A stretch of DNA of 64,000 nt from Spirochaetaceae bacterium (GCA_028821475.1 JAPPGB010000047.1:1136-65135), one strand, 5' to 3'; shown: positions 2,753 to 37,827, numbered from the stretch's first letter. Made by a program: numbers and translations. The notes: a model not told the origin generated them from the sequence alone.

Positions 2753-2931
2753 GCCGGTAAACCGGTTCCGGCCGCACCGCTTCGGGTACAGGCGGGGCAG
2801 GCGGCGGGCCACGGTCCGCCGCCTGGGTGCCGCCGTGCGCCACGCCTGGCTTGCACGGCGGGCAGGAGCAGGCGGGAGCCGCCTTGACGGGCCATTTCGG
2901 ACACAGTGTATGGTATGCCGCGAGCAGACCA

Positions 2932-5100
2932 ATGGCAACGACCAGCATACTGATCGTCGATCGGAGCCTGGACCGTGCACACCACCTGGAGCAGGGCGTT
3001 CGCGGCCTCGGCTACGCGGTGTGCGGCGTCGCAACCTGCGGCACGGAGGCGGTCGCGCTCGCCGGCGCCGGTGGAGCCGACTTGGTGCTGATCGACGCCG
3101 CGCTCCAGGGGGAGGTGTCCGGGGCGGACGCCGCCGCGCAGATCGGCGCCCGCCTTGCGATCCCGGTCGTGTTCGTCGTCGACTCCGCCGCCGGCGACGA
3201 ATCGGCCGCGCCCGACCTGCACCGGCAGGCGGCAAGCCGGCCGTCCGGGTACGTGCTGCGCCCCGTGCAGTGGCGGCAACTGGACCTGATCATCCGCACG
3301 GCGCTCGCCGCACGCGCCCGCGAGCGGGAGCTGACCGCCGAACGGCGCGCACTGCGGCATCGGCTCGACCGACTGCAGGAGCTCAACCGGCAACTCGAGT
3401 CCGGGTTCGACTGCCTCGACGATGCCGTGATCCTCTTCGATCGCGAGCGCAGGCCGCTGTTCCCCAACGCAGCCGCGCGGCTCCTGTGCGGAGACGCGAT
3501 ACTGAATCCCGACGCCGACCGGTGGCTCGACGAGTACGAACTGTTCGAGGTGGACGGGACGACGCCGGTCGATCTCGAGGAGGGTCCGCTCAGAAAGGCG
3601 CTGCGCAGCACGCAGGCGGTAACCGCCGACATGTTCGTTCGCAGAAGGAACCGCCCCGGGGGTGCCTACGTCAACGTCACGGCCAAGCCGCTCGGCGACC
3701 ATCCGGACGGTCCGCGCGGGGGGATGCTCGTCATCCGCGAGGTAACTCGGCACCGGGAGCGCGACGCGCAACTGCACGACACGCTCGCGGAGTTGCGCGA
3801 GCAGAACGAGTTGATCGACGCCGCGTTCAAGAGCATCAGCGATGGCATCGTGGTGGCCAACGCCGAGGGCATGTTTCTGTACGTAAACCCGGCCGCCGAG
3901 CAGATCGTCGGCATGGGACTCACCGACGCTCCACAGGAGCAGTGGTCGCAGCGGTACGGCGCCTACTATCCCGACCGTGTAACCCCCATGCCTTCCGAGG
4001 ACCTGCCGCTGCTGCGTGCCATCCGGCGCCGCGAGTCGGTGGACGAAGAGGACCTGTTCATCCGCAACCCGGGCCGGCCCGACGGCGTATACGTGCGCGT
4101 GAGCGCCCGTCCGCTGCTCAACGACGTCGGCGGCGTCCGAGGCGGCGTGATCGTGTTCCGCGACGTGACGGTACGCAGATTCGCCGAAGAAGCGCTGACC
4201 AACGCGTTCGCCGAGGGCCGGTCGGAGGTACTCGATACGCTTGTGCACAACATCGGTAATGCGATCACCAGCGTCACCACCGGCGTGGAGACGCTGCGCC
4301 GGACGCTCGCGAACGACCCGCTGCAACGCTCCCTGGCCGGGCTGGCCGCGGTGCTCGACGAGCACCGCGACCACTGGCTGGAGTTCCTCCGCGACGACGC
4401 GCGCGGCCGGCAAGTCCTGCCCTCCATTCTCTCACTCGCGGCACACTACGAGACGCGCGGCCGTGCGCTGATGAAGACCATCCAACGGGTGCGCAACCGG
4501 GCGTGGCGGATTGCCGACGTGATCCGCACCCAGCGCGAGGTCGACAGCGCCGGCATGGACCGCTCGAACGTCGACCTGAAGGGAGCGCTGCGGAACGCGG
4601 TGCGGGTGGTGAGCGAGTCGCTCGACCGGGCTCGGGTCCGCACCACCGTCGACTGCCGAGGGGCGCCGCGCGAGATTCGCATTCGCGAGAGCCGGTTTCA
4701 CCAGGCGCTGGTCAACCTGATCAAGAATGCCGTCGAGGCGATCGACGACCGCGGCGCCACGGACGGGCGCGCCCCGGCCCCCCGCATCCGCATCTGCGCC
4801 TGGTCCGGCGACCGGTACCTGAACCTGGAGGTTGCCGACAACGGCATCGGCATCCCAAGCACGGATTCCAGCTTGCTGTTCGCCCCCGGATACACCACCA
4901 AACGGAACGGCAGCGGGCTCGGTCTGCACTCGGTGGCGAACTTCGTTATCGGTTCGGGTGGCCGCATTCAGGCCCTGAGCGACGGCGCCGGCAAGGGAAC
5001 GACCATGCGCGTCATGCTGCCTCTCTCATCGGTGCTCGTCGCCGCGCCGCCGGCCCCCGCGAGCGCCGGACGGAACGGCCCGGCGCGGGAGCGGTCGTGA
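2932..5100 (+). CDS. Hybrid sensor histidine kinase (degenerate N-terminal receiver, PAS domains, HisKA-like H-box, HATPase_c)
   Basis: The N-terminus is receiver-like (ILIVDRS...LVLIDAAL). The middle is PAS-like. The H-box is LVHNIGNAITSV, and the N/G1/G2 boxes are LIKNAVEAI...DNGIGIP...GSGLGL. The start is placed at the ATG at 2932; the ORF-track frame opens at 2827. Confidence 0.75.
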   Translation: MATTSILIVDRSLDRAHHLEQGVRGLGYAVCGVATCGTEAVALAGAGGADLVLIDAALQGEVSGADAAAQIGARLAIPVVFVVDSAAGDESAAPDLHRQAASRPSGYVLRPVQWRQLDLIIRTALAARARERELTAERRALRHRLDRLQELNRQLESGFDCLDDAVILFDRERRPLFPNAAARLLCGDAILNPDADRWLDEYELFEVDGTTPVDLEEGPLRKALRSTQAVTADMFVRRRNRPGGAYVNVTAKPLGDHPDGPRGGMLVIREVTRHRERDAQLHDTLAELREQNELIDAAFKSISDGIVVANAEGMFLYVNPAAEQIVGMGLTDAPQEQWSQRYGAYYPDRVTPMPSEDLPLLRAIRRRESVDEEDLFIRNPGRPDGVYVRVSARPLLNDVGGVRGGVIVFRDVTVRRFAEEALTNAFAEGRSEVLDTLVHNIGNAITSVTTGVETLRRTLANDPLQRSLAGLAAVLDEHRDHWLEFLRDDARGRQVLPSILSLAAHYETRGRALMKTIQRVRNRAWRIADVIRTQREVDSAGMDRSNVDLKGALRNAVRVVSESLDRARVRTTVDCRGAPREIRIRESRFHQALVNLIKNAVEAIDDRGATDGRAPAPRIRICAWSGDRYLNLEVADNGIGIPSTDSSLLFAPGYTTKRNGSGLGLHSVANFVIGSGGRIQALSDGAGKGTTMRVMLPLSSVLVAAPPAPASAGRNGPARERS

Positions 5101-5987
5101 GCGCCGCGCAGTATCCCAACAGACGGGTTCTGATCGTCGACGACGAGCCGGACATCCACGACGACTTCACCGAGATGCTGTCCACCTCGTACCTGCCGCC
5201 GACCGCCGGCGGCACCGCGGAGCACGGCGTGCAACGGGCGCCGTTTCCGCCCACGTTCGAGTTGCTGCACGCCACCAGCGGCGAGCAGGCCTGCGACATC
5301 ATCCTGAACGCCAGGAGGTGGAGTCAGCCCATTGCCGTGGCGTACGTCGACATCAGGATGCCGGCGGGGATCGACGGCCCCGAGACGATCCGGCGGGTAC
5401 GCACGATGGATCGCGACGTCGAAGTCGTGATGATGACCGCGTACACCGACAAGACGCTTGCCGAGATCATCCAGGACATGGAACTGCTGCACAAGCTGCT
5501 GTACATCAGGAAGCCGTTCGTGCACGAGGAGATTCAGCAGATTACCGTGGCCCTGGTCGGCAAGTGGAACCTGGAGCAGGACCTGGCGGAGAAGCAGCGG
5601 CAGCTCGCCGGAAGCCAGCGCCGCCTGGAGGCCGTGCTCAACGCCACCCGTGACGCCATGGCGATGCGGGATCGCACGGGACGGCTGATGTACGCCAACA
5701 AGGCGTACCTGGCACTGATGGATATGACCCTCGACGAGTTGAAGAACCTCACGCCGGACGAGCTGGCGGCGCGAACCAGGGAACGCTTCAGCGAGCCGCG
5801 GCCGGGCGAGGTGGAGGGCGGGTTCGCGCTCCGCGGCCTCCGGCTGACCACCGCCGCCGGCGCCGGCGACCGCCAACCGGACCAGCGGCTGTACTACCGC
5901 ACCGCCACCGAGGTGCGTGACGGTGCCGAAGTGATCGGCGAGCTGGAAGTGTTCCGGGACGCGTCGCAGGAGATCGAGTCCGAGTAG
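5097..5987 (+). CDS. Response regulator: receiver with inserted loop plus C-terminal PAS-like module
   Basis: GTG at 5097 overlaps the kinase stop (GTGA). The receiver reads RVLIVDDEPD...VDIRMPAGIDG...MMTAY...IRKPF and is followed by a coiled coil and a PAS-like region. The N-terminal about 230 aa are paralogous to the N-terminus of the sigma-54 activator at 13144-15063. Confidence 0.7.
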   Translation: MSAAQYPNRRVLIVDDEPDIHDDFTEMLSTSYLPPTAGGTAEHGVQRAPFPPTFELLHATSGEQACDIILNARRWSQPIAVAYVDIRMPAGIDGPETIRRVRTMDRDVEVVMMTAYTDKTLAEIIQDMELLHKLLYIRKPFVHEEIQQITVALVGKWNLEQDLAEKQRQLAGSQRRLEAVLNATRDAMAMRDRTGRLMYANKAYLALMDMTLDELKNLTPDELAARTRERFSEPRPGEVEGGFALRGLRLTTAAGAGDRQPDQRLYYRTATEVRDGAEVIGELEVFRDASQEIESE

Positions 5988-6085: not shown

Positions 6086-7543
6086 CTACCGGTCCAGGGG
6101 CAGCCCCAGGGCGCGCGCCACGCCGGCCCCGTAGGCGGGATCGGCCTTGCTGAAGTGGCCGACCTGGCGGCGCTGGATCTCCTCCGGCACGCCGGCCATC
6201 GCGCGGCCGAGGTTCGTGAACAGCCGCTCCTGCTGCTGCCGGGTCATCAGGCGGAACAGGTTGCCCGGCTGAGTGTAGTCGTCGTTGCCCGCGCGCTGGA
6301 TGGAACGGTCCGCCCGGCCCTCGAAGACCGGCGGCAGCCCCGGGTCGCCGTGCTCGTCGGCCGTGGCGCCGCGGCTGTCCGGCTCGTCGGTCGCGGTGCC
6401 GGCGGCGCGCGTGGCGCCGTCCCGGTGCGAGGTGTGCATGCGACCAGCGGCCCGATTCACCGGCAGCGTCTCGTAGTCGACGCCGAGCCGGTGGCGGTGT
6501 GCGTCCGCGTACGCGAAGATCCGGAACTGCAGCACCTTGTCGGGGCTGTAGCCGATGCCCGGTACCTGGTTGGCGGGGGAGAAGACGGCCTGCTCCACAT
6601 CGGCGAAGTAGTTGTCGGGGTTGCGGTTGAGCTCGACGATGCCCACCTCGACCAGCGGGAAGTCGCCCTGCGGCCACACCTTGGTCAGGTCGAACGGGTC
6701 GAAGGCCAACGAGGCGGCCTGGTCGTCGGTCATCACCTGCACGCACATGCGCCAGCGCGGACAGTCACCGTTTTCGATCGCGTGGTACAGGTCGCGCTGG
6801 TGGCTGTCGCGGTCGCGGCCGACCAGTCGCGCACCCTCCTCGTCGGTCAGGGATTCGATGCCCTGCATGGTCTTGAGGTGGAACTTGCACCACACCCGCC
6901 GAGCGTCGGCGTTGACCAGGCTGAAGGTGTGCGAGCCGTAGCCGTTCATGTGCCGGTATGACCTGGGTCGGCCGCGGTCCGAGAACAGGATCGTGACCTG
7001 GTGCAGGCTCTCCGGCGACCGCGACCAGAAGTCCCACATTGCGGCCGTGCTGCGCATGTTGGTGCGCGGATCGCGCTTCTGGGTGCGGAGGAAGTCCGGG
7101 AACTTGTAGGGGTCACGCACGAAGTGCACCGGGGTGTTGTTGCCGACCAGGTCCCAGATGCCCGCGTCGGTGTAGTACTTCATGGCGAAGCCGCGCATGT
7201 CGCGCTCGCCATCGGCGGCGCCGCGCTCGCCGGCCACCGTGGAGAATCGCCAGAAGCACGTGGTCTGCTTGCCCACCTCCGCGAAGGCGCCGGCCCGGCT
7301 GTAGCGCGTGATGTCGTTGGTGATGGTCAGGGTGCCGTAGGCGCCCGAACCCTTGGCGTACACGACGCGCTCGGGAATCCGCTCGCGGTTGAAGTGCGCG
7401 TGCTGCTCGAACAGTTGCCAGTCCTGGACCAGCAACGGCCCGCGAGGTCCGGCGGTGATGCCGCTGTGCCGGTCGCCGATCGCCGCTTCGTTCGCGTCCC
7501 GGCCGACCGGGCCGGTGGCCGCACCATCCATGGAGACACTCAC
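6086..7543 (-). CDS. katA: Monofunctional heme catalase
   Basis: 485 aa with the canonical catalase core: [41 protein letters not shown] and NGYGSHTF. Its start overlaps the stop of the upstream S24 ORF (ATGA). Confidence 0.9.
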
Positions 7544-7860
7544 AGTACGCGGGAGGACCAGCGGACTTCGCCGATGAGCCGAAAGAACGGGTGCAGGGGC
7601 AGGGTTGGGTAGCGCGTGTTGTCACTGACCAGGAACCAGGCGCCGCCGCGGAGATCGAGCCGTTTCACGATGACGCGAGTGGCGGTTCTGAACGCGTAAA
7701 TCCGGCAGCACTCAAGGTGCCGGCGGCTGCGGTCGACCAGGATCTCGCTGCCGTCCGGCAGCGTGGGGTGCATCGAGTCTCCGGCGATCTGCAGCATCTC
7801 GCACTGGTCGAGGTCGATGCTGTGCCGGAGTTGCCACTCCCGCGAGGCGAGCAGCCTCAC
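7540..7860 (-). CDS. S24 (LexA/CI-type) peptidase domain, C-terminal half of a split repressor
   Basis: Has the GDSMHP catalytic-Ser motif and the VKRL catalytic-Lys motif. GTG start sits inside a GTGA overlap with the upstream HTH ORF. The S24 domain actually begins (AAGNP cleavage site) in the upstream ORF, which is a different frame. Confidence 0.6.
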
Positions 7861-8186
7861 CGTCCGTCCTCGGGGCGTGCCGGCGGGCGCCGTGCGTCGC
7901 CCTCTATGGTCATCGGATTGCCGGCGGCGGCGAGGCCCCCGACGGCGATGGTGTTGCGGTCGATCTCCGTCAGCATGCGGCTCATGTCCTCGGCCGGGCG
8001 CGGGTCGTCGGTAAGCCCGGCGAGGTAGTCGAGGGAAGTGCGAAGTACGCGCGCGGCCCGGATGGCACGCGTGAATGACGGCGTGTTCTGACCCGTCTCG
8101 ATCATCGAGATCATCGACTGGTTGACGCCCATCGCCACGGCAAGGTCAGCCTGCTTGATCCCAAGCTGCCTGCGCCGCTCCGACAT
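7857..8186 (-). CDS. HTH XRE-family DNA-binding domain with LexA-type AAG cleavage-site region, N-terminal half of a split repressor
   Basis: MSERRRQLGIKQADLAVAMGVNQSMISMIETGQNTPS is an HTH_XRE. ...VGGLAAAGNPMTIEG matches the LexA VAAGEP cleavage region. The ORF stops 18 codons later, with a -1 shift into the S24 ORF. Confidence 0.6.
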   Translation of the reverse strand: MSERRRQLGIKQADLAVAMGVNQSMISMIETGQNTPSFTRAIRAARVLRTSLDYLAGLTDDPRPAEDMSRMLTEIDRNTIAVGGLAAAGNPMTIEGDARRPPARPEDGR

Positions 8187-8359
8187 ACGACCGCCGACCA
8201 TGCAAACCACTGTAATCGATCGCGGGGAAGAATCCAACACGCACCGGCAGGCACCAGGCAGGCACCACGGCACCACGAGCACGCCGACGTGCCCGGCCAA
8301 CGCCGGACGAGCGCACGCCGCTGGTGCCCGGTGCAAAAAGTCGCAGGAGGGGTTGACGT

Positions 8360-8402
8360 ATCACTATGGCTGATATTACCCATCTATATCAGTATGAGTG
8401 AT
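8360..8402. promoter_or_regulatory. Nested AT-rich palindrome (ATCACT..TGATAT..N9..ATATCA..AGTGAT): candidate operator in the divergent intergenic region
   Basis: Outer inverted repeat ATCACT (8360-8365) / AGTGAT (8397-8402); inner TGATAT (8371-8376) / ATATCA (8386-8391). TTGACG lies at 8353-8358. The palindrome overlaps the start codon of the giant gene and is markedly AT-rich in a 70% GC genome. Confidence 0.45.
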
Positions 8403-11400
8403 ATTCATGAGACGCAGTTCCACCCGGCCGCGCGACTGGCACGGCCACAGGCCTCACCCCGCGGGAGCCGGCGGCGGGCGGCGACGAAGCAGGTCCCGCT
8501 CCTGGTCGCGGTGCTGCTTGCCGCCCTGGCACTGGCGCCGGCGGCGGCGCAGGACACGGAGTCCACGGTCGCCCTCCTGAGCAACGTCGGCCAGCCCCGG
8601 CGATCTTCGGTGAACTTCCAGAGCCCTGAACGGGCGCAGGGGTTCACGACCGGGCCTAACCTCAAGGGCTATGCCCTCGCGAACATCGAGGTCGGCTTCA
8701 ACGCGGTAGAGGGCGGCGGTTCCGTCACGGTGTCGTTGTGGTCCGACAGCGGCGGCAAACCGGGAACCAAGCTGTTCGACCTGACCAACCCCTCCGGGTT
8801 CTCCGGGGCCGGGATGCACCGGTTCGCGGCGCCATCGAACACGGTGCTTGCGCCAAGGACCTCCTACCACCTGCACATGGCTCACGCCGGCAGTGAAGCG
8901 GAGCGATTGGCGACGTCGATCAAGCTCGTCAGCTCTTCGTCGGGGGTAGACGCAGGCGGCGCACCGGGGTGGGGCTTCGACAAGTGGCATTCGAAGCGCT
9001 ATTCCCATTTCAGCTACACCGAGGGGTCAGGCAAGGTCATGATCAACGTCAATGGCAGCACGGTACCGCCGGACCCCGCGATTCAGCTTGTCAGCAACCT
9101 CCAACAGACCCCGCCGTCATCGTCGGTCAACCTCCGGGGGACCCCCGAGCAGGCGCAGGGGTTCACCACCGGTACGGCCGGCGACGGCTACGTCCTGGCG
9201 CACGTGGCGATCGACTTCGACGACGTACGGGGCGGCGACTCCGTGGTCGTGTCCCTGTGGTCCGACAGCGGCGGCAAACCCGGACGCAAGCTGTTCGGCC
9301 TGAGTAACCCCGCCGGGTTCTCGGGCAGAGCGGTGCACCGCTTCACCGCGCCACCGAACACGGTGCTCGCACCAGGCACTACCTACTACGTGCACGTCAC
9401 CCATTCCGGTGACGCTACGGCCGTGGACGGGACTGCCATCGACCGCGCCTCGTCCGGCGGGGAGGATGCCGGCGGCATGGCGGACTGGAGCATTGCGGAC
9501 CGACACCACTATCGAGCCCGTCCCAACTTCCAGTTCAGCAACGGGGCCAGCGTGCTGTTGATCAAGGTGAGTGGGTCGACCGCGCCGGCGGGCAGCCTGC
9601 TGACCCCGACGCTGAAGCTCAGTGCCGGGACCATCGGCGAGGACGGCGGCGAGACGACGGTAACGGCGGTGTTGAGCCGCACCTCCAGCGTCGACACCAC
9701 GATCACCGTAAGCGCAACGCCGGTATCACCGGCAACCGACGACGACTTCACGCAAAGCGGCACGACGCTGACGATCCCGGCGGGGAGTACGACCAGCACC
9801 GGCACGGTAACCATCGCCGCGGTAAACAACGACGTCGACGCGGACGACAAGGAGGTGACGGTGTCGGCCACGGCGAGCGGCGTAGGCGTGGCGGCGCCGG
9901 CGGATCGGACGCTGACGATCACCGACGACGACACCCGTGGCGTGACGGTATCGGAGAGCACGCTGGCGTTCGGGGAAGGCGGCAGCGCGACCTACACGGT
10001 GGTGCTGGACTCGCAGCCGACGGCGGACGTGACGATCGGCGTGGCGTTCGCGCCGGGGACGGACGCGGACCTGACCGTGGACGAGGCGACGCTGACCTTC
10101 ACGGCCGGCGACTGGCGCGACGCGCAGACGGTGGAGGTACGGGCAGCGGAGGACGCGGACGACGTGCAGGACGTGGGGACGGTGCAGCACACGGTAAGCG
10201 GCGGGGACTACGGCGCCAACAGCGTGGCCGCGGCGGACGTTTCGGTCGAGGTTACCGACGACGAATCGCCGTCCACCACGGTGGTGCTGGCGGTGCAGCC
10301 GGAGGCGGTGGCCGAGGACGTGGGCGCCGGCGGCCGGGAGGTGACCGTGACCGCGACGCTGAACGCCGCGCCCCGCGCGACCGCCACCGAGGTGACGGTC
10401 TCCGTCGCTCCGGAGACGGCCACGGCCGCGGACTACGCGGCGGTGGCGGACTTCACGCTGACCATCGACGCGCAAGCGACGAGCGCGACCGGGTCGTTCA
10501 CGCTGCAGCCGGTGGACGACAGGTTGTCGGAGGGTGGCGAGACGGTCGCGGTGAGCGGCACGGCGGACTTGGCGGTGACCGGTACGACGGTGGCGATCAC
10601 CGACGATGAGGCCCCCCCGACGGTGACCCTGACGCTTGGTGCGCCGTCGATCAGCGAGCGCGGCGGCGAGACGACGGTGACGGCAACCCTCGACCACGGC
10701 TCCGCTGCCGAGACCACGGTCACGGTGACCGTGACGCCGGTGGCGCCGGCGGCGGGCGGCGACTACACGCTGAACGGCAGCACCCTGACGATCGCCGCGG
10801 GCAGCACGACCAGCACCGGCACGGTGACCATCGCGGCGGTGGACAACGCCGTGAACGCGGCGGACAAGCAGGTGACGGTGTCGGCGACCGCCACCAACAG
10901 CGTCGGCGTGACGGCCCCGGCGGACCGGACGCTGACGATCGCCGACGACGAAGTGAGCGCAGCCAAAGTGAATCCGGCGGGCGGGACCGAGCGCAATGAC
11001 CCGCCGCCTCCGCCACCCCCACCGCCACCGCCACCGCCGCGGGTGAGCATCGCGGATGCGAGCGCGCGTGAGGGCAGCGGCGTCATGGCGTTCACCGTGC
11101 GGCTCGGCGCGGCGACCGAGCAGCCGGTGACGGTGGCGTGGATGACCGCCGACGGCACGGCGGCGGCGGCCGCCGATTACACCGCGGTTACCGCCGGCAC
11201 CGTGACCTTCGCACCCGGACAGACCCGGCAGACGATCCGGGTAGATGTCCTGGACGACCGGCTGGACGAGTCGGACGAGACCTTCCTGGTACGGCTGAGC
11301 GACCCGGTGCACGCGCGGATAGAGTCCCCCGGCGGCGCCGCCACCGGGACGATCGTCGACGACGACGAGACCCCGGCGCTGACGATCGCCGATGCGCGCG

Positions 11401-13127
11401 CGGTCGAGAGCAGCGGCGAGATCGCGTTTCTGGTAACGCTGGAGGCGGCCAGCGGGCGGCCGGTGAGCGTTGCGTGCAGCACCGCGGACCAAACGGCGAC
11501 GGTGGACGAGGACTACCTCGGCGAGCGCGGCGTGCTGACTTTCGCGCCCGGGGAGACGCAGCGGACGATCCGCATCGTGGTGCTGGACGACAACCGGCAG
11601 GAGAAGGACGAGACATTCATGCTCGACCTGAGCGAACCGACCAACGCACGGATGGCGGCGGATGTGCTACGGGCCACCGGGACCATTGCGGATGACGACC
11701 GGCAGGTGACGGCGGCATGGCTGGCGCGCTTCGGGCGCACGGCAGCCAGTGAGGTGCTGGACTCGATAGTGGCGAGGATGGAAGGCGGCGCCGGCGCCGG
11801 CTCGTACATGACCCTTGCCGGCCAGCGTCTGCACGCCGTGCAGCCAGCGGCGGAGGGGGCGGATCAGCCGGCCCCGGTTGCCGTCGCCCACCGCACCATC
11901 AGCGACCGGGAGCTGCTGGCCGGGAGCGGGTTTCAGTTGGAGATTGCCCGGAGCGCGGCGCCGGAGGTCACCGCCGTGCCGCCGGGCGACGCCGCGGGCG
12001 CCCGCTGGACGGCCTGGGGCCGCGGCGCCACGACCTTCTTCGAGGGCCGGGATGCAGGGCTGTCGATGCAGGGCGAGGTGCTGACCGGCTCGTTCGGAAT
12101 CGACCGCGAGCACGGCGGGGTGCTGGCCGGCCTGGCGGTGGCGCACAGTGGCGGTGCCGGCGGCTACGCGGTGCCGGGCGGCGCCGCGGCGCCGGGCGGC
12201 GACGGTCGCCCGGCACGCGAAGGTGATCTGCGGGCAGCGTTGACCAGCGTGCACCCGTACGGACGACTGTCGCTGAACGAGCGCGTGCAGGTGTGGGGCG
12301 TGCTTGGCTACGGGATCGGCACGCTGGAACTGCGCGAAGCGAACCAGGCTGAGCGGGCCGGCATCGGCATGCTGCTGGGGGCATTCGGGGGGCGTGCGGA
12401 GCTGATGAACGGCGAGTGGAGCGGTGTCCGCCTTGCGCTGAAGACGGATGGCTACCTGTTGCGTATGACCTCGGAAGCGACCGCGGAGCTGCCGGCGGTA
12501 GCGGCGCACGTGAGCCGGCTGCGGTTGTCGGCGGAGGGCTCTACCGCCCTGGACGTCGGAGCGCGCCGCGTGCTGATGCCCTCCCTGGAGATAGGCGTAC
12601 GCCACGACGGTGGTGACGCGGAGACCGGGGCGGGTCTGGAGACGGCCGCCGCGCTGCGCTGGTTCGACCCCGCGTGGGGGCTGACGCTGGCGGCCAGCGG
12701 GCGGGTGCTGCTGACGCACCAGGATCGCGGCTACCGGGAATGGGGAGCCGGTGGTTCGCTGCATCTCGACCCGGGCGCCGCGGGGCGCGGCCCGGCGCTG
12801 ACCGTGAACTCCTCCTACGGCGCGCCCGGCGGCGCGGGAGTGCTCTGGTCGCTGCGCGACGCGACCGGCCTGGCTGCTAGCAACAGCGCCGGGGCGCCGG
12901 CGGGCCGCGTGGCCGCGCAACTGGGATACGGCCTGGAGCTGCCCGGAGGCGGCAGCGTGGTACCCTACGCCGGCGCCGAGTTGACCGAACGCGACCGCCG
13001 CACGTGGCGGCTGGGCAGCCGTTTCAGCCCGGGTGCGTTCGACGTGGCCGCCGAGGTTACCCGCCGGGACGCCGCCGGCACCGCTCCGATGCACAGCCTC
13101 ACCCTCAACGCGTCGGTGCGGCTGTAG
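8394..13127 (+). CDS. Giant secreted multi-repeat surface protein: signal peptide, 2 tandem novel ~140-aa domains, Ig-like repeats, poly-Pro linker, 2 Calx-beta domains, autotransporter-like C-terminal barrel
   Basis: Cleavable signal peptide (VPLLVAVLLAALALAPAAAQ). Two tandem repeats (VNFQSPERAQGFTTG...VSLWSDSGGKPGTKLF...NTVLAP vs VNLRGTPEQAQGFTTG...VSLWSDSGGKPGRKLF...). Repeated TLTIxAGSTTSTGTVTIAAV modules. P13 run at about 10990-11040. Two Calx-beta domains (DY..TFAPGQTRQTIRVDVLDD..DETF...ATGTI(V/A)DDD). The C-terminal about 470 aa have an alternating pattern reminiscent of type Va autotransporter barrels. Confidence 0.75.
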   Translation: MSDIHETQFHPAARLARPQASPRGSRRRAATKQVPLLVAVLLAALALAPAAAQDTESTVALLSNVGQPRRSSVNFQSPERAQGFTTGPNLKGYALANIEVGFNAVEGGGSVTVSLWSDSGGKPGTKLFDLTNPSGFSGAGMHRFAAPSNTVLAPRTSYHLHMAHAGSEAERLATSIKLVSSSSGVDAGGAPGWGFDKWHSKRYSHFSYTEGSGKVMINVNGSTVPPDPAIQLVSNLQQTPPSSSVNLRGTPEQAQGFTTGTAGDGYVLAHVAIDFDDVRGGDSVVVSLWSDSGGKPGRKLFGLSNPAGFSGRAVHRFTAPPNTVLAPGTTYYVHVTHSGDATAVDGTAIDRASSGGEDAGGMADWSIADRHHYRARPNFQFSNGASVLLIKVSGSTAPAGSLLTPTLKLSAGTIGEDGGETTVTAVLSRTSSVDTTITVSATPVSPATDDDFTQSGTTLTIPAGSTTSTGTVTIAAVNNDVDADDKEVTVSATASGVGVAAPADRTLTITDDDTRGVTVSESTLAFGEGGSATYTVVLDSQPTADVTIGVAFAPGTDADLTVDEATLTFTAGDWRDAQTVEVRAAEDADDVQDVGTVQHTVSGGDYGANSVAAADVSVEVTDDESPSTTVVLAVQPEAVAEDVGAGGREVTVTATLNAAPRATATEVTVSVAPETATAADYAAVADFTLTIDAQATSATGSFTLQPVDDRLSEGGETVAVSGTADLAVTGTTVAITDDEAPPTVTLTLGAPSISERGGETTVTATLDHGSAAETTVTVTVTPVAPAAGGDYTLNGSTLTIAAGSTTSTGTVTIAAVDNAVNAADKQVTVSATATNSVGVTAPADRTLTIADDEVSAAKVNPAGGTERNDPPPPPPPPPPPPPRVSIADASAREGSGVMAFTVRLGAATEQPVTVAWMTADGTAAAAADYTAVTAGTVTFAPGQTRQTIRVDVLDDRLDESDETFLVRLSDPVHARIESPGGAATGTIVDDDETPALTIADARAVESSGEIAFLVTLEAASGRPVSVACSTADQTATVDEDYLGERGVLTFAPGETQRTIRIVVLDDNRQEKDETFMLDLSEPTNARMAADVLRATGTIADDDRQVTAAWLARFGRTAASEVLDSIVARMEGGAGAGSYMTLAGQRLHAVQPAAEGADQPAPVAVAHRTISDRELLAGSGFQLEIARSAAPEVTAVPPGDAAGARWTAWGRGATTFFEGRDAGLSMQGEVLTGSFGIDREHGGVLAGLAVAHSGGAGGYAVPGGAAAPGGDGRPAREGDLRAALTSVHPYGRLSLNERVQVWGVLGYGIGTLELREANQAERAGIGMLLGAFGGRAELMNGEWSGVRLALKTDGYLLRMTSEATAELPAVAAHVSRLRLSAEGSTALDVGARRVLMPSLEIGVRHDGGDAETGAGLETAAALRWFDPAWGLTLAASGRVLLTHQDRGYREWGAGGSLHLDPGAAGRGPALTVNSSYGAPGGAGVLWSLRDATGLAASNSAGAPAGRVAAQLGYGLELPGGGSVVPYAGAELTERDRRTWRLGSRFSPGAFDVAAEVTRRDAAGTAPMHSLTLNASVRL

Positions 13128-17869: not shown

Positions 17870-18052
17870 CGCCTGGTCGAATGATATCCTCATCGGCGTG
17901 GCCGGCCACCTGCGGGACCAGTGTCGCGAACCCCGTGCCCAGCGTCATGCGCTATGAGCGTCCGGACCGCCCGGCAAGGGTCGAGTGGCCGCATCACGGC
18001 TGATGGTGGCAAGTGGCGATGACCGTCATTGGTCGGTATATTGTGGTGGCAC

Positions 18053-18394
18053 ATGGACTCGACGACGCTTTCGAAAGTCAGGGATTTCGTGCAGGAGGCC
18101 CTTGCTGAGGGCCATCCGCGCGGTGGAGTAGCATTCGGTCCGATCGAGGTGCGGCGTACCTATGACGCTGACGATGGCTCTCCGTATCTCCGCATCGTGA
18201 TCGTCTTCGACGGCTCCAAGGATGACCTTGATGTCGCGTGGTTGGGTGGCATGCCAAGGCGACTGCTAGCGAGGCTCTCGGATGTGGGGATAGAAGACTA
18301 TCCCAACCTTTCCTACGTGTCTAGCGAAGAATGGGGCAGTGGTGTGGAGAAATGGCTGAGCACGTATCCCGAAGTCAACATTGAATCCTGCTGA
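18053..18394 (+). CDS. Hypothetical protein (first gene of a low-GC two-gene islet)
   Basis: 113 aa from the ATG at 18053. Local GC is about 52-55% versus about 70% in the flanks. It overlaps the next ORF by 14 nt. It has a GS-KDDLD segment faintly reminiscent of a minimal nucleotidyltransferase motif but is not canonical. Confidence 0.4.
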   Translation: MDSTTLSKVRDFVQEALAEGHPRGGVAFGPIEVRRTYDADDGSPYLRIVIVFDGSKDDLDVAWLGGMPRRLLARLSDVGIEDYPNLSYVSSEEWGSGVEKWLSTYPEVNIESC

Positions 18395-18863
18395 TCTGCT
18401 GACCGCCGCCAGAAACTCGATCTTGGGTCTCGGGGCGGGTCGCCCTTTGCAAGCTACGCTTCGGCGGGCAGTCAGCACGATTTACTATGCAGCATTCACT
18501 TGTCTGGCCAATGTCTGTGCCGACAAGGTGGTCGGTCAGTATCGCAGTCTCGACGACAGCGGGAAACGAGCGTGGGTCCAAGTCTACCGCGCCGTGGATC
18601 ATGGGAAGGCAAAGAACCGTTGCAAGAACAACCAAATCATGGGCCAGTTTCCCTCGGCAATCCGTGACTTTGCTGCGCCGTTCGTAGACCTGCAGTACGA
18701 CCGTACGATTGCGGATTATGTTCCCTACGAGAACTTCTTCAAGGCTGAGGTTGACATACTCGCCGATACCGCTGAAGGAATAATTCACCGCTTCATGGGT
18801 CTTCCATCCGGCGTGCTTCGCGCCTTCGCGGTGTACGTACTGTTCGACTCACGGAAGAACTAA
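18381..18863 (+). CDS. HEPN-like domain protein (second gene of the low-GC islet)
   Basis: 160 aa. The pattern AADLLTAARNS...RRAVSTIYYAAFTCLANV...KRAWVQVY...YDRTIADY resembles PF05168-type HEPN helices with an R-x4-DY motif. The call is made by eye and is uncertain. Confidence 0.45.
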   Translation: MNPADLLTAARNSILGLGAGRPLQATLRRAVSTIYYAAFTCLANVCADKVVGQYRSLDDSGKRAWVQVYRAVDHGKAKNRCKNNQIMGQFPSAIRDFAAPFVDLQYDRTIADYVPYENFFKAEVDILADTAEGIIHRFMGLPSGVLRAFAVYVLFDSRKN

Positions 18864-18969
18864 TCGTGCGTTTCGGTTGTTCGTGGCGGCTGCTCCGTCT
18901 CACGTTGGCGGCGGAATCGCGGCGCGGTGCAGGTGATGGAATTGTTTCCGACTTCCTTGGCGGACGATT

Positions 18970-19743
18970 GTGAAGCTCGGCATTCTGGACACGTTTCGGC
19001 TGGACGGGCGGGTGGCGCTGGTGACCGGGGCCAGCCGCGGCTTCGGCGAGGTGATCGCCAGCGCGCTGGCGGAGGCGGGGGCGTCGCTGGCACTGCTGGC
19101 GCGCGGCGAGCGCGTGCAGGAAGTCGCGCGCGAGCTGAGCGCCGAGCACGGGGTGGCGTGCCGCGCCTACCGGTGCGACGTGAGCGACCCGGCCGCGGTG
19201 GAGCAGGCGGTGGCAGGTGTGATCGCGGACTGCGGCGGGCTTCACATCGTGGTGAACAACGCAGGCATCAACATCCGCGGGCCGATCGAGGAGCTGAGCC
19301 TGGAGCAGTTCCGGCAGGTGCAGGACACCAACCTCACCTCGATGTGGCTGGTGTGCCGTGCCGCCGCCGGCCACCTGAAGGAGCAGGGCTACGGACGGGT
19401 GATCAACATCGGCTCGCTGCTGTCGGTGCTCGGCATGGCCGAGCGCACCCCCTACGCGGTCAGCAAGGGCGGCGTGCTGCAACTCACCCGCGTGCTGGCG
19501 CTGGAGTGGGCGCAGGCCGGCATCACCGTCAACTGCATCATCCCCGGCATGTTCGCCACCGAGCTGAACCTCCCGTTGCTCGGCGTTCCCGAGATCGCCG
19601 CCCGCGTGGTGGCGAAGGTGCCGATGGGGCGCTGGGGCGAGCCGCGCGAGATTGCGGGGCTGGCCCTTTACCTGGCCGGCGATGCCGCGAGCTACGTCAC
19701 CGGCGCCGCGCTGACCATCGACGGCGGCTGGAGCGTGCACTGA
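18970..19743 (+). CDS. SDR family oxidoreductase (classical short-chain dehydrogenase)
   Basis: TGASRGFG cofactor motif, NNAG, and a YAVSK active-site motif. GTG start. Its stop overlaps the next gene's start (TGAGTG). Confidence 0.85.
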   Translation: MKLGILDTFRLDGRVALVTGASRGFGEVIASALAEAGASLALLARGERVQEVARELSAEHGVACRAYRCDVSDPAAVEQAVAGVIADCGGLHIVVNNAGINIRGPIEELSLEQFRQVQDTNLTSMWLVCRAAAGHLKEQGYGRVINIGSLLSVLGMAERTPYAVSKGGVLQLTRVLALEWAQAGITVNCIIPGMFATELNLPLLGVPEIAARVVAKVPMGRWGEPREIAGLALYLAGDAASYVTGAALTIDGGWSVH

Positions 19744-21243: not shown

Positions 21244-22011
21244 TCAGTCCCGGTAGGATGGGTCTTCGCGGTCCAGAATCGCTTGCAGTTCGCGGAAGTG
21301 GTCGTCGCTCAGATCCGGATAGTCGAGCCACTGCCGGCGTGTCGTCGCGGCCACCTGGTCGCAGGGGATCTTCAGTTCGCGCCCGGTTTGCAGCGCCGTG
21401 ATGTAGGTCTCGCAGGCGCGCTCGAAGTAGTACAGGTCGTCGAACGCCTGCGCAACCGTTGCGCCGATCACCATCACCCCGTGGTTGCGCATCAGCAGAA
21501 TCGGGTTGTCGCCGGCCATCGACGCCACCCGCTCCGCCTCGTCGTCCAGGCCCATGCCCTCGAACTGCTCGTCCACGGTCACGCGGCCCCAGAAGCGCAT
21601 CGCGTTCTGGTCGATCGGCGGCAGCGCCGGGTCGGCGAGGCAGGCGAGCACCGTGGCGTAGCGCGAGTGCACGTGCAGCAGGCAGCGCGCGTGCGGCACC
21701 CGGCGGTGGATGGCACCGTGCAGCCCCCAGGCGGTGGGGTCGGGGGCGTCCGGGCGCTGCATCGTGGAGTCGTCCTCGGCATCGAGCAGGAGCAGCTCGC
21801 CGGCCCGGATCAGCGAGAAATGGCGCCCGCGCGGGTTCATCAGGAAGCGCGTGCCGGCGTCGTTCACGGCCAGACTGAAGTGGTTGGCCACCGATTCGTG
21901 CAGGTCGTAGCGTGCCGCCCACCGAAACGCGCAGGCCAGCGCGATCCGCTCCTCGGCGTATTCCATTTCGGGATGACCGTGAGCTGCAAGTGCGAGTCGG
22001 TCGGCCGCCAT
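21244..22011 (-). CDS. Class II aldolase/adducin family protein
   Basis: The N-terminus is ERIALACAFRWAARYDL...NHFSLAV. His-rich metal site (HVHS, HGAIH). Start uncertain (M at 22011 or 21969; ORF open to 22113). Confidence 0.7.
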   Translation of the reverse strand: MAADRLALAAHGHPEMEYAEERIALACAFRWAARYDLHESVANHFSLAVNDAGTRFLMNPRGRHFSLIRAGELLLLDAEDDSTMQRPDAPDPTAWGLHGAIHRRVPHARCLLHVHSRYATVLACLADPALPPIDQNAMRFWGRVTVDEQFEGMGLDDEAERVASMAGDNPILLMRNHGVMVIGATVAQAFDDLYYFERACETYITALQTGRELKIPCDQVAATTRRQWLDYPDLSDDHFRELQAILDREDPSYRD

Positions 22012-22247
22012 GATCTCGACACGGTAGCCCCGTCGTCGGTGCATGTCCACACCCGAGCTCATGGTGTGGTTTGCTCCGCCGGCAGGCGGAGGGTCGTCGG
22101 CGTGCTCCTCCAACGCGAGTCGCGCCGTACCAACAGCGGACTGGCGCTCTTTCGCCTGGAACCTGTACCGCTTCGTAGGCCACGAGTTGCCCGCTGCCCG
22201 GTCGACGCCCTTCCGATGCTCGGCCCAACGGTGCTACGCTGAGTGCT

Positions 22248-22475
22248 ATGGACTATCGAGAGATCATCACTATTGAGCCGGGGAAGCGTGGGGGCAAGCC
22301 ATGTATTCGGGGGCTCCGCATCACCGTCTACGATGTTCTCGAATACTTGGCGTCAGACATGACTCGGGAAGAGATACTCGCCGATTTACCAGATCTTACA
22401 CCGGATGACATCAAGGCATGTCTATCTTTCGCGGCTGACCGAGAGCGCCGATTCGTCTCGGTACCGGCCGAGTGA
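22248..22475 (+). CDS. DUF433 domain protein (putative antitoxin)
   Basis: 75 aa, ...RGGKPCIRGLRITVYDVL..., with its stop overlapping the DUF5615 start. Local GC is lower than the flanks. Confidence 0.8.
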   Translation: MDYREIITIEPGKRGGKPCIRGLRITVYDVLEYLASDMTREEILADLPDLTPDDIKACLSFAADRERRFVSVPAE

Positions 22476-22804
22476 AGCTGCTCTTCGACCAGAATCTGTC
22501 GCCGCGATTGATCGACCGCCTTGCGAGTATGTATCCCGAATCCGCACATGTTCGGGATCTTGGTCTACACCGAGCCGTGGACCGGCAGGTGTGGAAACAC
22601 GCAGGTGAGAACGGTTACGCCATTGTCTCGAAGGACTCCGACTTCCATCAGCTGAGCTTTCTGTACGGACACCCGCCGAAGGTGGTTTGGATCCGGAGGG
22701 GTAACTGCACCACTAATGAAATCGAGGCGATACTGCGCGAGTTCTCCACACGGTTGGCTGAGTTCGACGCGGACGAGGCCGCATCGTACTTGGCAATCTC
22801 GTAG
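22472..22804 (+). CDS. DUF5615 (PIN-like/Mut7-C) protein, putative toxin partner of DUF433
   Basis: 110 aa, MKLLFDQNLSPRL...VSKDSDF. This is the canonical DUF433-DUF5615 pair arrangement. Confidence 0.75.
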   Translation: MKLLFDQNLSPRLIDRLASMYPESAHVRDLGLHRAVDRQVWKHAGENGYAIVSKDSDFHQLSFLYGHPPKVVWIRRGNCTTNEIEAILREFSTRLAEFDADEAASYLAIS

Positions 22805-22881
22805 TAGCTCGCAATCGAATCTGCGTGCCTTGGCCATCTGCCACGGCCATCGGCCGGAGCCGGGCGATTCGCGACGATGTA

Positions 22882-25098: not shown

Positions 25099-25109
25099 GA
25101 CCGATGTAG

Positions 25110-25412
25110 TCAGTTGTCGCCTGGTTCGGACGGATCAAGAAGACGAGCACTGTGGTGGATCGTCAGGAGCTGGACTTCATCGCCAATCAGCCGATAGACG
25201 ATTCGGTAGTTGCCGTGAAGCATTTCCCGAATGTCGTCCCGATTTGACTCGGGTACAACTCTGCCAACCTGCGGAAACGATTCCAATGCTGATGCCTTAT
25301 CGACTATCTGGGTCGCGAAAACCTGGGGATAATTTCGGGAGTCGCGCGCGATCTAGGCACATATTGCTGCTACGTCTGCAAGCGCTTGCGGAGTCCATCT
25401 CAATCGAGCCAC
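25110..25412 (-). pseudogene. parE: ParE/RelE-family toxin with in-frame amber codon after codon 19
   Basis: GTG at 25412-25410 overlaps the antitoxin stop. The N-terminus ARLRWTPQALADVAAICA is followed by TAG (25353-25355), then IARDS...VFATQIVDKASALESFPQVGRVVPE...YRIVYRLIGDEVQLLTIHHSAR (ParE core). There is no alternative start downstream of the amber. Confidence 0.55.
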
Positions 25413-25597
25413 CTACGTAACCGCTGTCGTGCCTCGTCATGTGACACGGTAAGGCCGGCATCTGCTTGTTCTATGCCCTTTTCGATTTTGTGGAGCAGGA
25501 AGAGCCTCTCTATCGCATCCTCGATACTTGCATTCTCCGGCAGATTGCGAATCAAGCTTTCCATTTTCGATTTCATTGTTTTCATTGTTGATGGCAT
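25400..25597 (-). CDS. parD: ParD-like antitoxin (RK2 ParD-type)
   Basis: ...ESLIRNLPENASIEDAIERLF...ADAGLTVSHDEARQRLRRWLD resembles RK2 ParD (QYALERLF...GLAGKVST...). Start uncertain (candidates 25597, 25585, 25576, 25564). Confidence 0.5.
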   Translation of the reverse strand: MPSTMKTMKSKMESLIRNLPENASIEDAIERLFLLHKIEKGIEQADAGLTVSHDEARQRLRRWLD

Positions 25598-25683
25598 AGG
25601 ATTGAACCGGATCAGGAGTATAGCGGGGTCATCATCCGCCGTCCACTTGCGCCCGGGCGGCCAAGGCCGGTACCATCCGCGGC

Positions 25684-26436
25684 GTGACATCATCGACGAC
25701 CGACAGGATCGCCGTGCAGAGCTACTGCTTCCGCGGCTTTGCCAGCAACGAAGAGGTCGCCGCCAAGGCCGGGGAGATCGGGCTGGCGGCGGTCGAGCCG
25801 TGTGGCGTGCACGTCGACTTCGCCGACGAGGCCGCGCAGGACGCGGCCATCGCCGCGTACCGCGACGCCGGCGTGCGGCTGGTGAGCTGCGGAGTCAACT
25901 CGATCCGCGGCGACGGCAGCGGCGCCGAGTGCTACTTCCAGTTCGCCCGCAAGGCCGGCCTGCCGGTGATCAGCGCCGACGTCACCCCGCCGGCGTCGTG
26001 GGACACGTTCGCCGCCGCCGAGCGCCTGGCCGAGCAGTACGACGTGAACGTGGCGCTGCACAACCACGGCGGCGCGCACTGGCTCGGCAACGCGCAGATG
26101 CTGGAGGAGGTGTTCCGGCGCACCGGCCCGCGCATCGGGCTGATGTTGGACACCGCCTGGGCGATCGACTCGCGCGAGGACCCGGTCAAGATGGTGCGCC
26201 GCTTCGGCAACCGGCTGATGGGCGTGCACCTCAAGGACTTCGTCTACTCCCGCAACCGCGAACCGGTGGACGTGGTGATCGGCACCGGCATCCTCGACCT
26301 GCCCGCCCTGGTCACGGCACTGGGCGACGTCGGCTTCGACGGCGTGCCGATCATCGAGTACGAGGGCGACGTCAACAACCCGGTCCCGGCGCTCACCGAG
26401 TGCGTAAAGGAAATCGCCGCCGCCTGGAACCTGTAG
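25684..26436 (+). CDS. Sugar phosphate isomerase/epimerase (xylose-isomerase-like TIM barrel)
   Basis: 250 aa with conserved H/D/E metal ligands in TIM-barrel spacing (ALHNHGGAHW, MLDTAWA, EYEGD). Confidence 0.75.
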   Translation: MTSSTTDRIAVQSYCFRGFASNEEVAAKAGEIGLAAVEPCGVHVDFADEAAQDAAIAAYRDAGVRLVSCGVNSIRGDGSGAECYFQFARKAGLPVISADVTPPASWDTFAAAERLAEQYDVNVALHNHGGAHWLGNAQMLEEVFRRTGPRIGLMLDTAWAIDSREDPVKMVRRFGNRLMGVHLKDFVYSRNREPVDVVIGTGILDLPALVTALGDVGFDGVPIIEYEGDVNNPVPALTECVKEIAAAWNL

Positions 26437-37744: not shown

Positions 37745-37827
37745 GTCACATCACGTCAGTTCCGACGGGTAGAGGAAAACCGGGGGGCCTGAGCCCCCCA
37801 GTCTCAGCGGGCACTAGTTTACCAGTA

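Follow-up and report, generated by a model that had tools for sequence, protein, structure and literature searches.

A probable natural fission of a CI/c-type S24 repressor gene in a sponge-associated clade labelled Spirochaetaceae

Gene content of the split repressor locus

A pair of overlapping open reading frames (ORFs), encoding separately the DNA-binding half and the protease half of an XRE-S24 repressor, was analysed in a stretch of 64,000 nucleotides (nt) from Spirochaetaceae bacterium (GCA_028821475.1, JAPPGB010000047.1:1136-65135), here called the window. Frame translations and Pfam searches placed a helix-turn-helix (HTH) ORF (ORF 1; HTH_3, E = 3.9e-15), an S24 ORF (ORF 2; Peptidase_S24, E = 1.4e-14) and a catalase gene in this order on the minus strand, divergent from a giant gene for a secreted protein (Table 1). 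ORF 1 and ORF 2 are separate adjacent genes with the 4-nt overlap GTGA, in which the GTG start of the second lies one base 5' of the TGA stop of the first. An initial annotation of this DNA had located a LexA-type cleavage motif, LAAAGNP, in the HTH ORF ending at 7857, and the S24 catalytic serine (GDSM) and lysine (VKRL) in the next ORF (7540-7860), in the -1 frame and reached through the GTGA overlap; both placements were confirmed by translation and Pfam, and the catalytic dyad was assigned to Ser29 (codon 7774-7776) and Lys66 (codon 7663-7665) of ORF 2.

Several boundaries in that description were revised. ORF 1 most likely begins at ATG 8201, five codons upstream of ATG 8186, an alternative gene-caller start that gives a product of 109 amino acids (aa): in the alignment the N-terminus MVGGRMSERRRQLG paired residue for residue with the homologue N-termini MLGERLAEARRRVG, and the resulting 114-aa form was annotated by NCBI in two metagenome-assembled genomes (MAGs; MDE0228669.1 and MDE0026646.1). 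The stop of ORF 2 had been described as overlapping the catalase start in an ATGA, but this stop (TGA 7540-7542) overlaps a GTG at 7541-7543, and the catalase ATG chosen by the gene callers, at 7531, lies 8 nt downstream of ORF 2. The divergent gene does start inside an AT-rich palindrome, as had been claimed, although at ATG 8394, the 1612 aa originally credited to it being the maximal ORF from GTG 8289. Both window proteins correspond to NCBI entries from three MAGs labelled Spirochaetaceae bacterium, in which they are annotated as separate genes, those for ORF 2 (MDE0026645.1, MDE0228670.1 and MDE0446139.1) being labelled 'S24 family peptidase'.

Table 1. Coordinates of the features of the split repressor locus, counted from the first nucleotide of the window.
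Feature	Position	Strand	Product	Description
Catalase gene	6086..7531	-	481 aa	Clade-3-type monofunctional catalase; Pfam Catalase, 1.4e-170
ORF 2	7540..7860	-	106 aa	Stand-alone S24 catalytic core; GTG start 7860-7858, -1 frame
Junction	7857..7871	-		GAGGAcggacgGTGA; Shine-Dalgarno-like purine block 6 nt before the ORF 2 GTG
ORF 1	7857..8201	-	114 aa	XRE/434-type HTH, residues 1-60; predicted helix 70-86
ORF 1, C-terminal part				GGLAAAGNP with the cleavage site A93-G94; Pro/Arg-rich tail of 20 residues up to TGA 7857-7859
Tail/linker	7860..7919	-		Residues 95-114 of ORF 1; sequence hypervariable, length fixed
Cleavage-site region	7914..7934	-		LAAAGNP; scissile Ala93-Gly94 encoded at 7920-7925
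Repressor promoter-like block	8209..8237	-		TTGGAT-17 nt-TACAGT; ends 7 nt before ATG 8201
Variable GC-rich spacer	8238..8352			Between dyads and repressor promoter; 11-bp tandem repeat GGCAGGCACCA x2 at 8246-8267
Giant gene promoter-like elements	8353..8379	+		-35-like TTGACG 8353-8358; extended -10-like TGATATTAC 8371-8379, overlapping the proximal dyad
Proximal operator-like dyad	8359..8375			TATCAcTATGGcTGATA; exact TATCA-N7-TGATA match
Distal operator-like dyad	8387..8403			TATCAgTATGAgTGATA; giant gene ATG 8394-8396 at its centre
Giant secreted protein gene	8394..13127	+	1577 aa	Presumed target of the repressor

Recurrence of the split and selection on both ORFs

A query made of the fused HTH and S24 sequences returned 291 matches at E <= 0.001, all with 47% identity or less, and every one of the 120 matches listed was a single protein of 195-339 aa. 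A scan of JGI metagenomes recovered one ortholog, LXNJ01025586.1 (81% amino-acid identity), consisting of two ORFs of 114 and 106 aa with the same junction as the window, GGACGGTGAGG, and catalase downstream; this contig belongs to the metagenomes that Horn et al. 2016 (PMC5099237) obtained from Mediterranean sponges. The identical GTGA split, with identical ORF lengths, was found in five diverged lineages, designated W, P, X, Y and Z, on about 30 independent contigs retrieved from NCBI MAGs labelled Spirochaetaceae, ENA, JGI and Logan, which represent different sponge samples from the Pacific and the Mediterranean. Lineage W, the window type, carried the exact window S24 protein on 14 contigs, including one of 356 kb, and its MAGs in NCBI include GCA_028820165.1 and GCA_028818735.1; eight contigs belonged to lineage P, and lineage Y was represented by a 195-kb contig. 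Both window proteins fell into small clusters of variants, all members of which were equal in length, and the 662-nt two-ORF region, compared at 18 loci (10 haplotypes), contained zero indels; the sole length variant seen in the clade was an in-frame deletion of one codon in the tail (P0140/L110). Since the split is common to all the lineages, it predates their divergence.

Selection was assessed from pairwise Nei-Gojobori estimates, between split lineages, of the ratio of non-synonymous to synonymous substitution rates (dN/dS). Values of 0.11-0.16 were obtained for codons 1-90 of ORF 1 and of 0.6-1.5 for the 24 codons before its stop, with about 1 for the 20-residue tail, while ORF 2, read in its own frame, gave 0.16-0.42. 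Nine synonymous and no non-synonymous differences separated the ORF 2 sequences of the sub-lineages W and W2, and the 38 substitutions between W and X caused 17 amino-acid changes, compared with a mean of 25.4 in a neutral simulation (P = 0.0017). The age of the split, together with purifying selection on ORF 2, indicates that the protease half has been functional ever since the two ORFs were separated.

The residues needed for cleavage were conserved in both halves, the catalytic serine and lysine and the scissile Ala-Gly being constant in every split lineage. In an alignment of 76 family members the columns of G94 and Lys66 (K180 in the fused numbering) were invariant, and those of A93 and Ser29 (S143) were at least 90% conserved; in a 16-sequence alignment Ser29 and Lys66 were both invariant. 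The LAAAG segment was constant in all 10 haplotypes and in lineage Y, whose cleavage site differed in having GSP for GNP and VEGL for VGGL.

These comparisons decide the fate of two suggestions of the initial annotation, an indel introduced by sequencing (or assembly) and a pseudogene that arose by a recent frameshift; under either of them the S24 part would be dead DNA. Both draw on the fact that one inserted G would fuse the window frames, that the remaining family members are all single ORFs, and that other copies of the family are broken in long-read MAGs, either by in-frame stops (L009, 5986-6867, and L063, 5935-6753) or by indels in the HTH (L040, 5917-6741). However, the five lineages have two separate ORFs with an identical junction in about 30 contigs of independent origin (different samples, assemblers and oceans), the S24 frame is constrained as described above, and no frame-breaking indel occurred in the 662 nt over the 10 haplotypes, so that we consider both explanations refuted and give them next to no probability. 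Neither an error nor a dead gene accounts for the split, and both ORFs are kept by selection; the recurrence of the pair and the selection on its two members support the remaining suggestion of the initial annotation, that of a split regulator.

Other candidate splits were considered and rejected. The three broken copies named above are interrupted elsewhere and look like plain pseudogenes, and the S24-only tblastn matches (L047-L082) proved to be truncated remnants or single ORFs whose N-terminal HTH is a different one. In one contig (L096) the HTH product has 97 aa, and its terminal part corresponds to the opposite strand of that locus; this low-coverage contig was treated as chimeric. A further protein of the collection (P0148/L109) has 161 aa and its own cleavage site.

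Translation of ORF 2

The GTGA and an AGG core 6 nt upstream were kept in all the lineages, while the neighbouring bases varied (GGACGGTGA, GACCGGTGA, GGTCGGTGA, CGACGGTGA and GCGGGTGA); the Shine-Dalgarno sequences of other window genes are of the AAGGAG type. No upstream ATG, GTG or TTG was found in the ORF 2 frame besides GTG 7860. Given the constant GTGA and AGG block and the lack of any other upstream start, the simplest reading is that ORF 2 would be made as a separate protein, by termination-reinitiation at the GTGA.

A frameshift-dependent regulator had also been proposed. In that case a programmed -1 frameshift, or another form of recoding, would produce a normal single-chain repressor of 220 aa and the split would be only apparent, which agrees with frames that differ by exactly -1, with a 24-nt stretch around the junction that is identical in W and X, with a small hairpin that is possible over the GTGA, and with the selection seen on both halves, expected equally under recoding. 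Nevertheless, the junction, which reads GAC GGA CGG TGA in the window, contains no slippery heptamer of the type X XXY YYZ, and the two codons preceding the stop are not constant across the lineages (GGA CGG, GAC CGG, GGT CGG, CGA CGG and GGC GGG). Folding of the junction RNA was no better than that of shuffled sequence (minimum free energy z = -0.69), and a compensatory change was observed in one of 26 predicted pairs (covariation term -0.16 kcal/mol) among six closely related sequences; moreover, an in-frame GTG preceded by an AGG block is an ordinary start for ORF 2. With no slippery site and little sign of a conserved RNA structure, coupled translation into two polypeptides is the most likely outcome, and recoding appears improbable.

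Predicted fold and position of the break

In the AlphaFold2 (AF2) model of the fused sequence, the HTH (residues 1-60) and the core (residue 121 onwards) were both predicted with confidence, the predicted local distance difference test (pLDDT) values exceeding 90 in the core, and residues 70-86 formed a helix. Foldseek aligned this core with the C-terminal domains (CTDs) of lambda CI (1KCA/1F39) and Mycobacterium tuberculosis LexA at a root-mean-square deviation (rmsd) of 1.8-2.0 A, and superposition on lambda CI CTD, LexA CTD and UmuD' gave an overall rmsd of 1.8-2.4 A, with 18-30% identity to the solved structures. A search of the PDB with ORF 2 alone yielded no match, a family profile being required, and the profile of the homologue family matched the 434 repressor in the HTH (1e-7).

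In the AF2 model of an intact homologue (P0004) the cleavage site is part of a hairpin, whose first strand (97-108) immediately precedes the scissile Ala109-Gly110 and whose second strand (119-127, RVGLLWFRN) aligns with RVRLLASRE across the window junction. According to the alignment, ORF 1 keeps the first strand and ORF 2 opens with the second (RLLASRE), and the break is located in the loop of the predicted cleavage-site hairpin. By a hand count on the alignment, the stretch from the scissile glycine to the catalytic serine was nine residues longer than in the single-chain homologues, and the added residues showed neutral evolution.

Self-cleavage requires that site and core reside on one polypeptide, and in the five lineages a stop and a -1 frame change lie between them. 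Because this break separates the cleavage-site strand from the core, cleavage cannot be intramolecular. By analogy with other S24 proteins, we hypothesize that the two chains re-associate through the hairpin strands and that the S24 core cuts the ORF 1 protein in trans. Kim and Little reportedly observed in 1993 that isolated C-terminal fragments of LexA and CI cleave substrate in trans, although those fragments were laboratory constructs, whereas the window pair consists of natural separate genes. The intermolecular S24 cleavage of UmuD has been explained by the cryo-electron microscopy structure of RecA-UmuD (PMC9926225); there, as proposed here, an S24 core cuts the Ala/Cys-Gly site of another chain, but the substrate arm and the core belong to one gene product, within a homodimer, and not to two genes.

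Single-chain relatives and ancestry

Both halves of the window pair belonged to the PHROG family phrog_4 (transcriptional repressor), where they occupied adjacent profile positions (242-337 for ORF 2). The closest phage matches of ORF 2 were the Mu-like c repressors of the Pseudomonas phages D3112, MP29 and JBD, Rhodobacter RcapMu and Xanthomonas PBR31 (29-37% identity over at least 83% of the length), and its protein-database search gave four matches only. Two phage families consisting of the S24 core only, phrog_6201 (121 positions) and phrog_8558 (114 positions), matched most of ORF 2, and stand-alone S24 cores may exist in phages too.

The single-chain relatives of the window pair (38-47% identity) form a family that is present in multiple copies in sponge-symbiont MAGs of many phyla, among them Dehalococcoidia, Vicinamibacterales, Bryobacterales, Longimicrobiales and Spirochaetia. 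Their genes are found with AlpA, methylase, integrase, transposases and Mu-type genes, and usually adjoin a divergent cro/ner-like gene of 75-100 aa; the cro/ner-like partners share the motif SRYLRGxRPPPxGFExRVxxALDRLExAExAAxEA and had no above-threshold match in Pfam. In several Dehalococcoidia genomes, many copies occur together with truncated S24-only remnants (L047, L066, L068, L071 and L074).

None of the 80 homologue loci screened with tblastn had catalase or the giant gene beside the repressor, this synteny being confined to the split clade. Conversely, a hidden Markov model (HMM) of 16 partner proteins detected no remnant of a cro/ner-like gene in the six-frame translation of the window, except for the repressor's own HTH, and no integrase or transposase was found within about 10 kb of the split pair, nor any prophage around it. 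The absence of catalase and the giant gene from the homologue loci, of a cro/ner remnant from the window and of mobile genes from its vicinity suggests that the split clade holds a domesticated copy. Compared with the single-chain family, which has a divergent cro/ner-like gene, two dyads and a GTCAA in fixed geometry, the window lineage is distinguished by the split, by the loss of the cro/ner-like gene, the position of which is occupied in the window by the giant gene, and by an insertion of about 50-135 bp that separates the dyads from the repressor promoter; its flanks are chromosomal (catalase, a two-component system and the giant surface protein), in contrast to the mobile-element context of the family. 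The N-terminus of the giant protein (MSDIHETQFHPAARLARPQ) was considered as a derivative of a cro/ner-like protein, such as that of L028 (MDSIHIKIRLARLG), and was dropped when the HMM of the 16 partners found nothing.

Operator-like dyads and promoters

The divergent region had been described as holding a 43-bp nested palindrome. The AT-rich palindrome is real, at 8360-8402, but it is better read as two tandem dyads of 17 bp, 28 bp apart from start to start. These dyads were the only two matches to TATCA-N7-TGATA, with one mismatch allowed, in the 64 kb of the window (chance expectation 0.13), and two of 100 shuffled sequences reached two matches anywhere. In W, P, X and Z the dyad arms were conserved, except for one base in each of two variants, while the 7-bp centres varied freely (GCCATAG, GCCATGA, TCTATAG, ACCACGA, GTTTAAT and GTACTGT in the proximal dyad); the spacing was 26-28 bp within the split clade, and the centre of the distal dyad coincided with the ATG of the giant gene in the same four lineages.

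Most of the single-chain homologues had a locus-specific dyad pair of their own, 25-29 bp from start to start in the clearest cases, and in one of them (L028) the ATG of the cro-like gene likewise lies inside the distal dyad. A regular layout, with a GTCAA and a TAnnnT upstream of the repressor start, was recognised in 18 of 27 homologue loci. The GTCAA (TTGAC on the other strand) was located about 31-35 nt before the start codon, or 40-42 nt in a few loci, and adjoined the second dyad in 20 of the 27; the TAnnnT began 10-15 nt, mostly 12-14, before the start codon in 19 of the 27. As judged from sequence, this arrangement resembles lambda-like back-to-back promoters with a leaderless repressor mRNA. 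The layout of the immunity region, about 120 nt upstream of the repressor genes, was regular across phyla (loci L003-L046).

The same layout of homologous dyad pairs, and arms that are kept while centres vary, support the earlier prediction that the palindrome is an operator, and the identification of the dyads as the operator of a putative ORF 1 repressor is well supported by comparison. Their sequence, TATCAC...GTGATA, resembles TATCAC, which we take to be the consensus half-site of the lambda operators.

The proposed promoters rest on conservation across lineages, since a scan for consensus promoters and terminators returned nothing at threshold, the repressor block included. On the giant gene side, TTGACG (TTGTCA in X) and TGATATTACC were kept in W, P and X, and TTGACG and TGATATTAC in Z; these elements would act as the promoter of the giant gene. 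As the dyads cover this promoter and the first codons, the repressor would control the giant gene. On the repressor side, equivalents of the promoter-like block were found in X (TTGGAT-17-TACATT-5-ATG) and Y (TTGGAA-17-TATATT-5-ATG), with different spacer sequences, and there was no Shine-Dalgarno sequence before ATG 8201. The repressor mRNA is probably leaderless, as is that of lambda cI when read from PRM.

The dyads lie at least about 120 bp upstream of the promoter-like block of the repressor-catalase operon. The intervening spacer, which changes by indels, ranged among strains from about 50 nt (L110) to about 135 nt (L092/L094), and since it separates the repressor promoter from the dyads, the latter are in no position to repress the catalase-containing operon. 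Within the spacer, 20 bp are duplicated in L092/L094, and the L091 and P types have lost tens of bp.

Giant surface protein and catalase

Two Calx-beta domains were recognised in the giant protein (Pfam, 1.2e-39), and its N- and C-terminal thirds had no Pfam match. The N-terminus consists of a variable pre-signal extension, a signal peptide and two repeats of about 190 aa that match no Pfam family; the extension measured 27-50 aa among lineages, and the signal peptide and the mature part were conserved. The C-terminal 500 aa might be an outer-membrane anchor. The protein also contains a run of 13 prolines.

Synteny with catalase was conserved in the five lineages, with a gap of 8 nt between ORF 2 and catalase in W, P and Z and of about 80 nt in X, which makes it very likely that catalase is co-transcribed with the repressor pair. 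In the alignment to PDB catalases, the distal catalytic histidine was replaced by Tyr58 in the window enzyme (codon 7358-7360; VVYAKG versus RMHAKG), and the motif TPVFF reads TPVHF. Tyrosine and histidine alternate at position 58 even between close lineages, the former being present in W, W1 and P and the latter in W2 and X (loci L087-L108). The dN/dS of catalase between lineages, 0.41-0.62, was above that of either repressor ORF, and in lineage Y (L108) the catalase gene is broken into three ORFs while both repressor ORFs are intact. Catalase may be decaying or changing function, and as it seems less constrained than the regulator, the oxidative-stress link is weak for the window. The initial annotation had linked an SOS/CI-type switch to both oxidative-stress defence and the giant protein; the SOS and oxidative-stress link is conjectural, given dyads that lie on the promoter of the giant gene, a catalase devoid of the distal histidine and the broken catalase of lineage Y.

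Proposed mechanism

Taken together, the locus is probably a conserved natural fission of a CI/c-type S24 repressor, domesticated in one sponge-associated clade. The ancestor would have been an immunity repressor like lambda CI or the Mu-like c repressors, with an XRE HTH and an S24 Ser-Lys protease, and its gene would have undergone fission in the cleavage-site hairpin loop in the clade labelled Spirochaetaceae in NCBI MAGs. ORF 1 would supply the HTH, the helix, the Ala-Gly cleavage-site strand and a disordered tail, and ORF 2, translated by termination-reinitiation at the GTGA with the help of the AGG-type Shine-Dalgarno sequence 6 nt upstream, the partner strand of the hairpin and the whole catalytic core. 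The chains would re-associate through the hairpin strands, the S24 core dimerising the complex and cutting the ORF 1 protein at A93-G94 in trans. The ORF 1 protein would bind both TATCA-N7-TGATA dyads, over the -35/-10 elements and the first codons of the giant gene, and would repress this gene from what was formerly the early (cro/ner-side) promoter of the ancestral element, while the repressor-S24-catalase operon, with its own promoter and a leaderless mRNA, would probably not be repressed through the dyads.

A more specific version of this proposal can be offered only tentatively: an obligate trans-acting S24 switch, in which a free core dimer would capture and dimerise a separate HTH repressor and, on a DNA-damage/RecA signal, cleave it, thereby gating the giant gene, with the ratio of enzyme to substrate set by translational coupling.

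Several observations weigh against a working partnership of the two proteins at this operator. The AF2 model of the fused sequence leaves the cleavage-site region undocked (pLDDT below 50 for residues 84-96 and of 46-66 for residues 97-120), and the hairpin of the intact homologue P0004 is itself only moderately confident. Should ORF 1 neither carry a dimerisation domain nor bind the core, a cut 20 residues before its C-terminus would have little effect. In lineage Y both ORFs and the repressor promoter are retained, but there are no dyads and no giant gene within 8 kb, its neighbour being ThuA, which indicates that the link from dyads to giant gene is not universal. The conservation of the operator, finally, is judged among fairly close relatives.

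Some of these points would be expected if both ORFs were functional but no longer partners, ORF 1 being an ordinary XRE repressor that is not inducible and whose cleavage motif is vestigial, and ORF 2 a free S24 protein with another role, either UmuD-like or as a protease for another substrate. The undocked cleavage site, the retention of the pair by lineage Y in the absence of dyads, the neutral evolution of the tail after the cleavage site and the existence of the short S24-only phage families all point in that direction. Against this, LAAAG is constant in every haplotype despite the adjoining hypervariable tail, the GTGA overlap and the fixed tail length keep the translational coupling in all the lineages, and ORF 2 still has the strand whose partner, in intact homologues, is the cleavage-site strand. 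We consider such a loss of partnership rather doubtful, although a much more serious alternative than recoding or an assembly error.

Comparison with known regulators

LexA, CI and UmuD are textbook cases of regulated self-cleavage in which, to our knowledge, enzyme and substrate always belong to one chain. With lambda CI, 434 CI and P22 C2 the window pair shares the XRE HTH and S24 domains, the Ala-Gly site, the Ser-Lys dyad and tandem 17-bp dyad operators between divergent promoters; unlike them, it is split and has neither a cro-like partner nor a surrounding prophage.

In having adjacent genes for an XRE repressor and a protease, the window resembles ImmA-ImmR (ICEBs1), IrrE-DdrO (Deinococcus) and CapP-CapH (of the CBASS anti-phage systems), but ImmA, IrrE and CapP are zinc metallopeptidases of COG2856, whereas the window protease, with its Ser-Lys dyad, is an S24 core that originated as the C-terminal domain of the repressor itself. 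In the PADLOC search ORF 1 gave weak matches to capH, limited to the HTH (1.2e-7), and ORF 2 gave none. The recruitment of phage-type XRE-S24 repressors to chromosomal regulation has a precedent in the non-canonical LexA of Bacteroidetes (Sanchez-Osuna et al. 2021, PMC8565304), which is a single polypeptide that acts on DNA-repair genes, while the window repressor is split and its only predicted target is the giant surface-protein gene.

No described split S24 repressor was found in the text of the open-access literature. If the proposed mechanism is true, the pair would be a serine-protease counterpart of ImmA-ImmR and IrrE-DdrO, born by fission of a phage repressor, and would indicate that the S24 module can evolve into a genuine protease-substrate pair, offering a ready-made system for the study of trans recognition of the cleavage-site strand. 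It would also be a clear case of a mobile-element immunity switch recruited for a host surface protein in animal symbionts. In NCBI the members of the pair carry labels that suggest no relation between them ("HTH transcriptional regulator" and "S24 family peptidase"), and frameshift filters would call them a pseudogene; neither fits the comparison.

Neighbouring genes

The neighbours of the split pair in the window are genes for catalase, a response regulator and a histidine kinase, a sigma-54 activator, an oxidoreductase and ABC transporters, and scans for tRNA genes and Rfam families gave no match in the window or the intergenic region. At 2925-5987, on the plus strand, the gene table gives a single response-regulator/PAS product of 1020 aa, while the window frames contain a histidine kinase ORF (2827..5100, 757 aa) and a response-regulator/PAS ORF ending at 5987, in overlapping frames. 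Sister contigs have two genes at this place (722-726 aa and 295-301 aa), and the single 1020-aa product is probably a gene-calling artefact. The G+C content falls to 57-62% at 18000-19000, 22000-23000, 25000-26000 and 36000-39000, against a background of about 69%.

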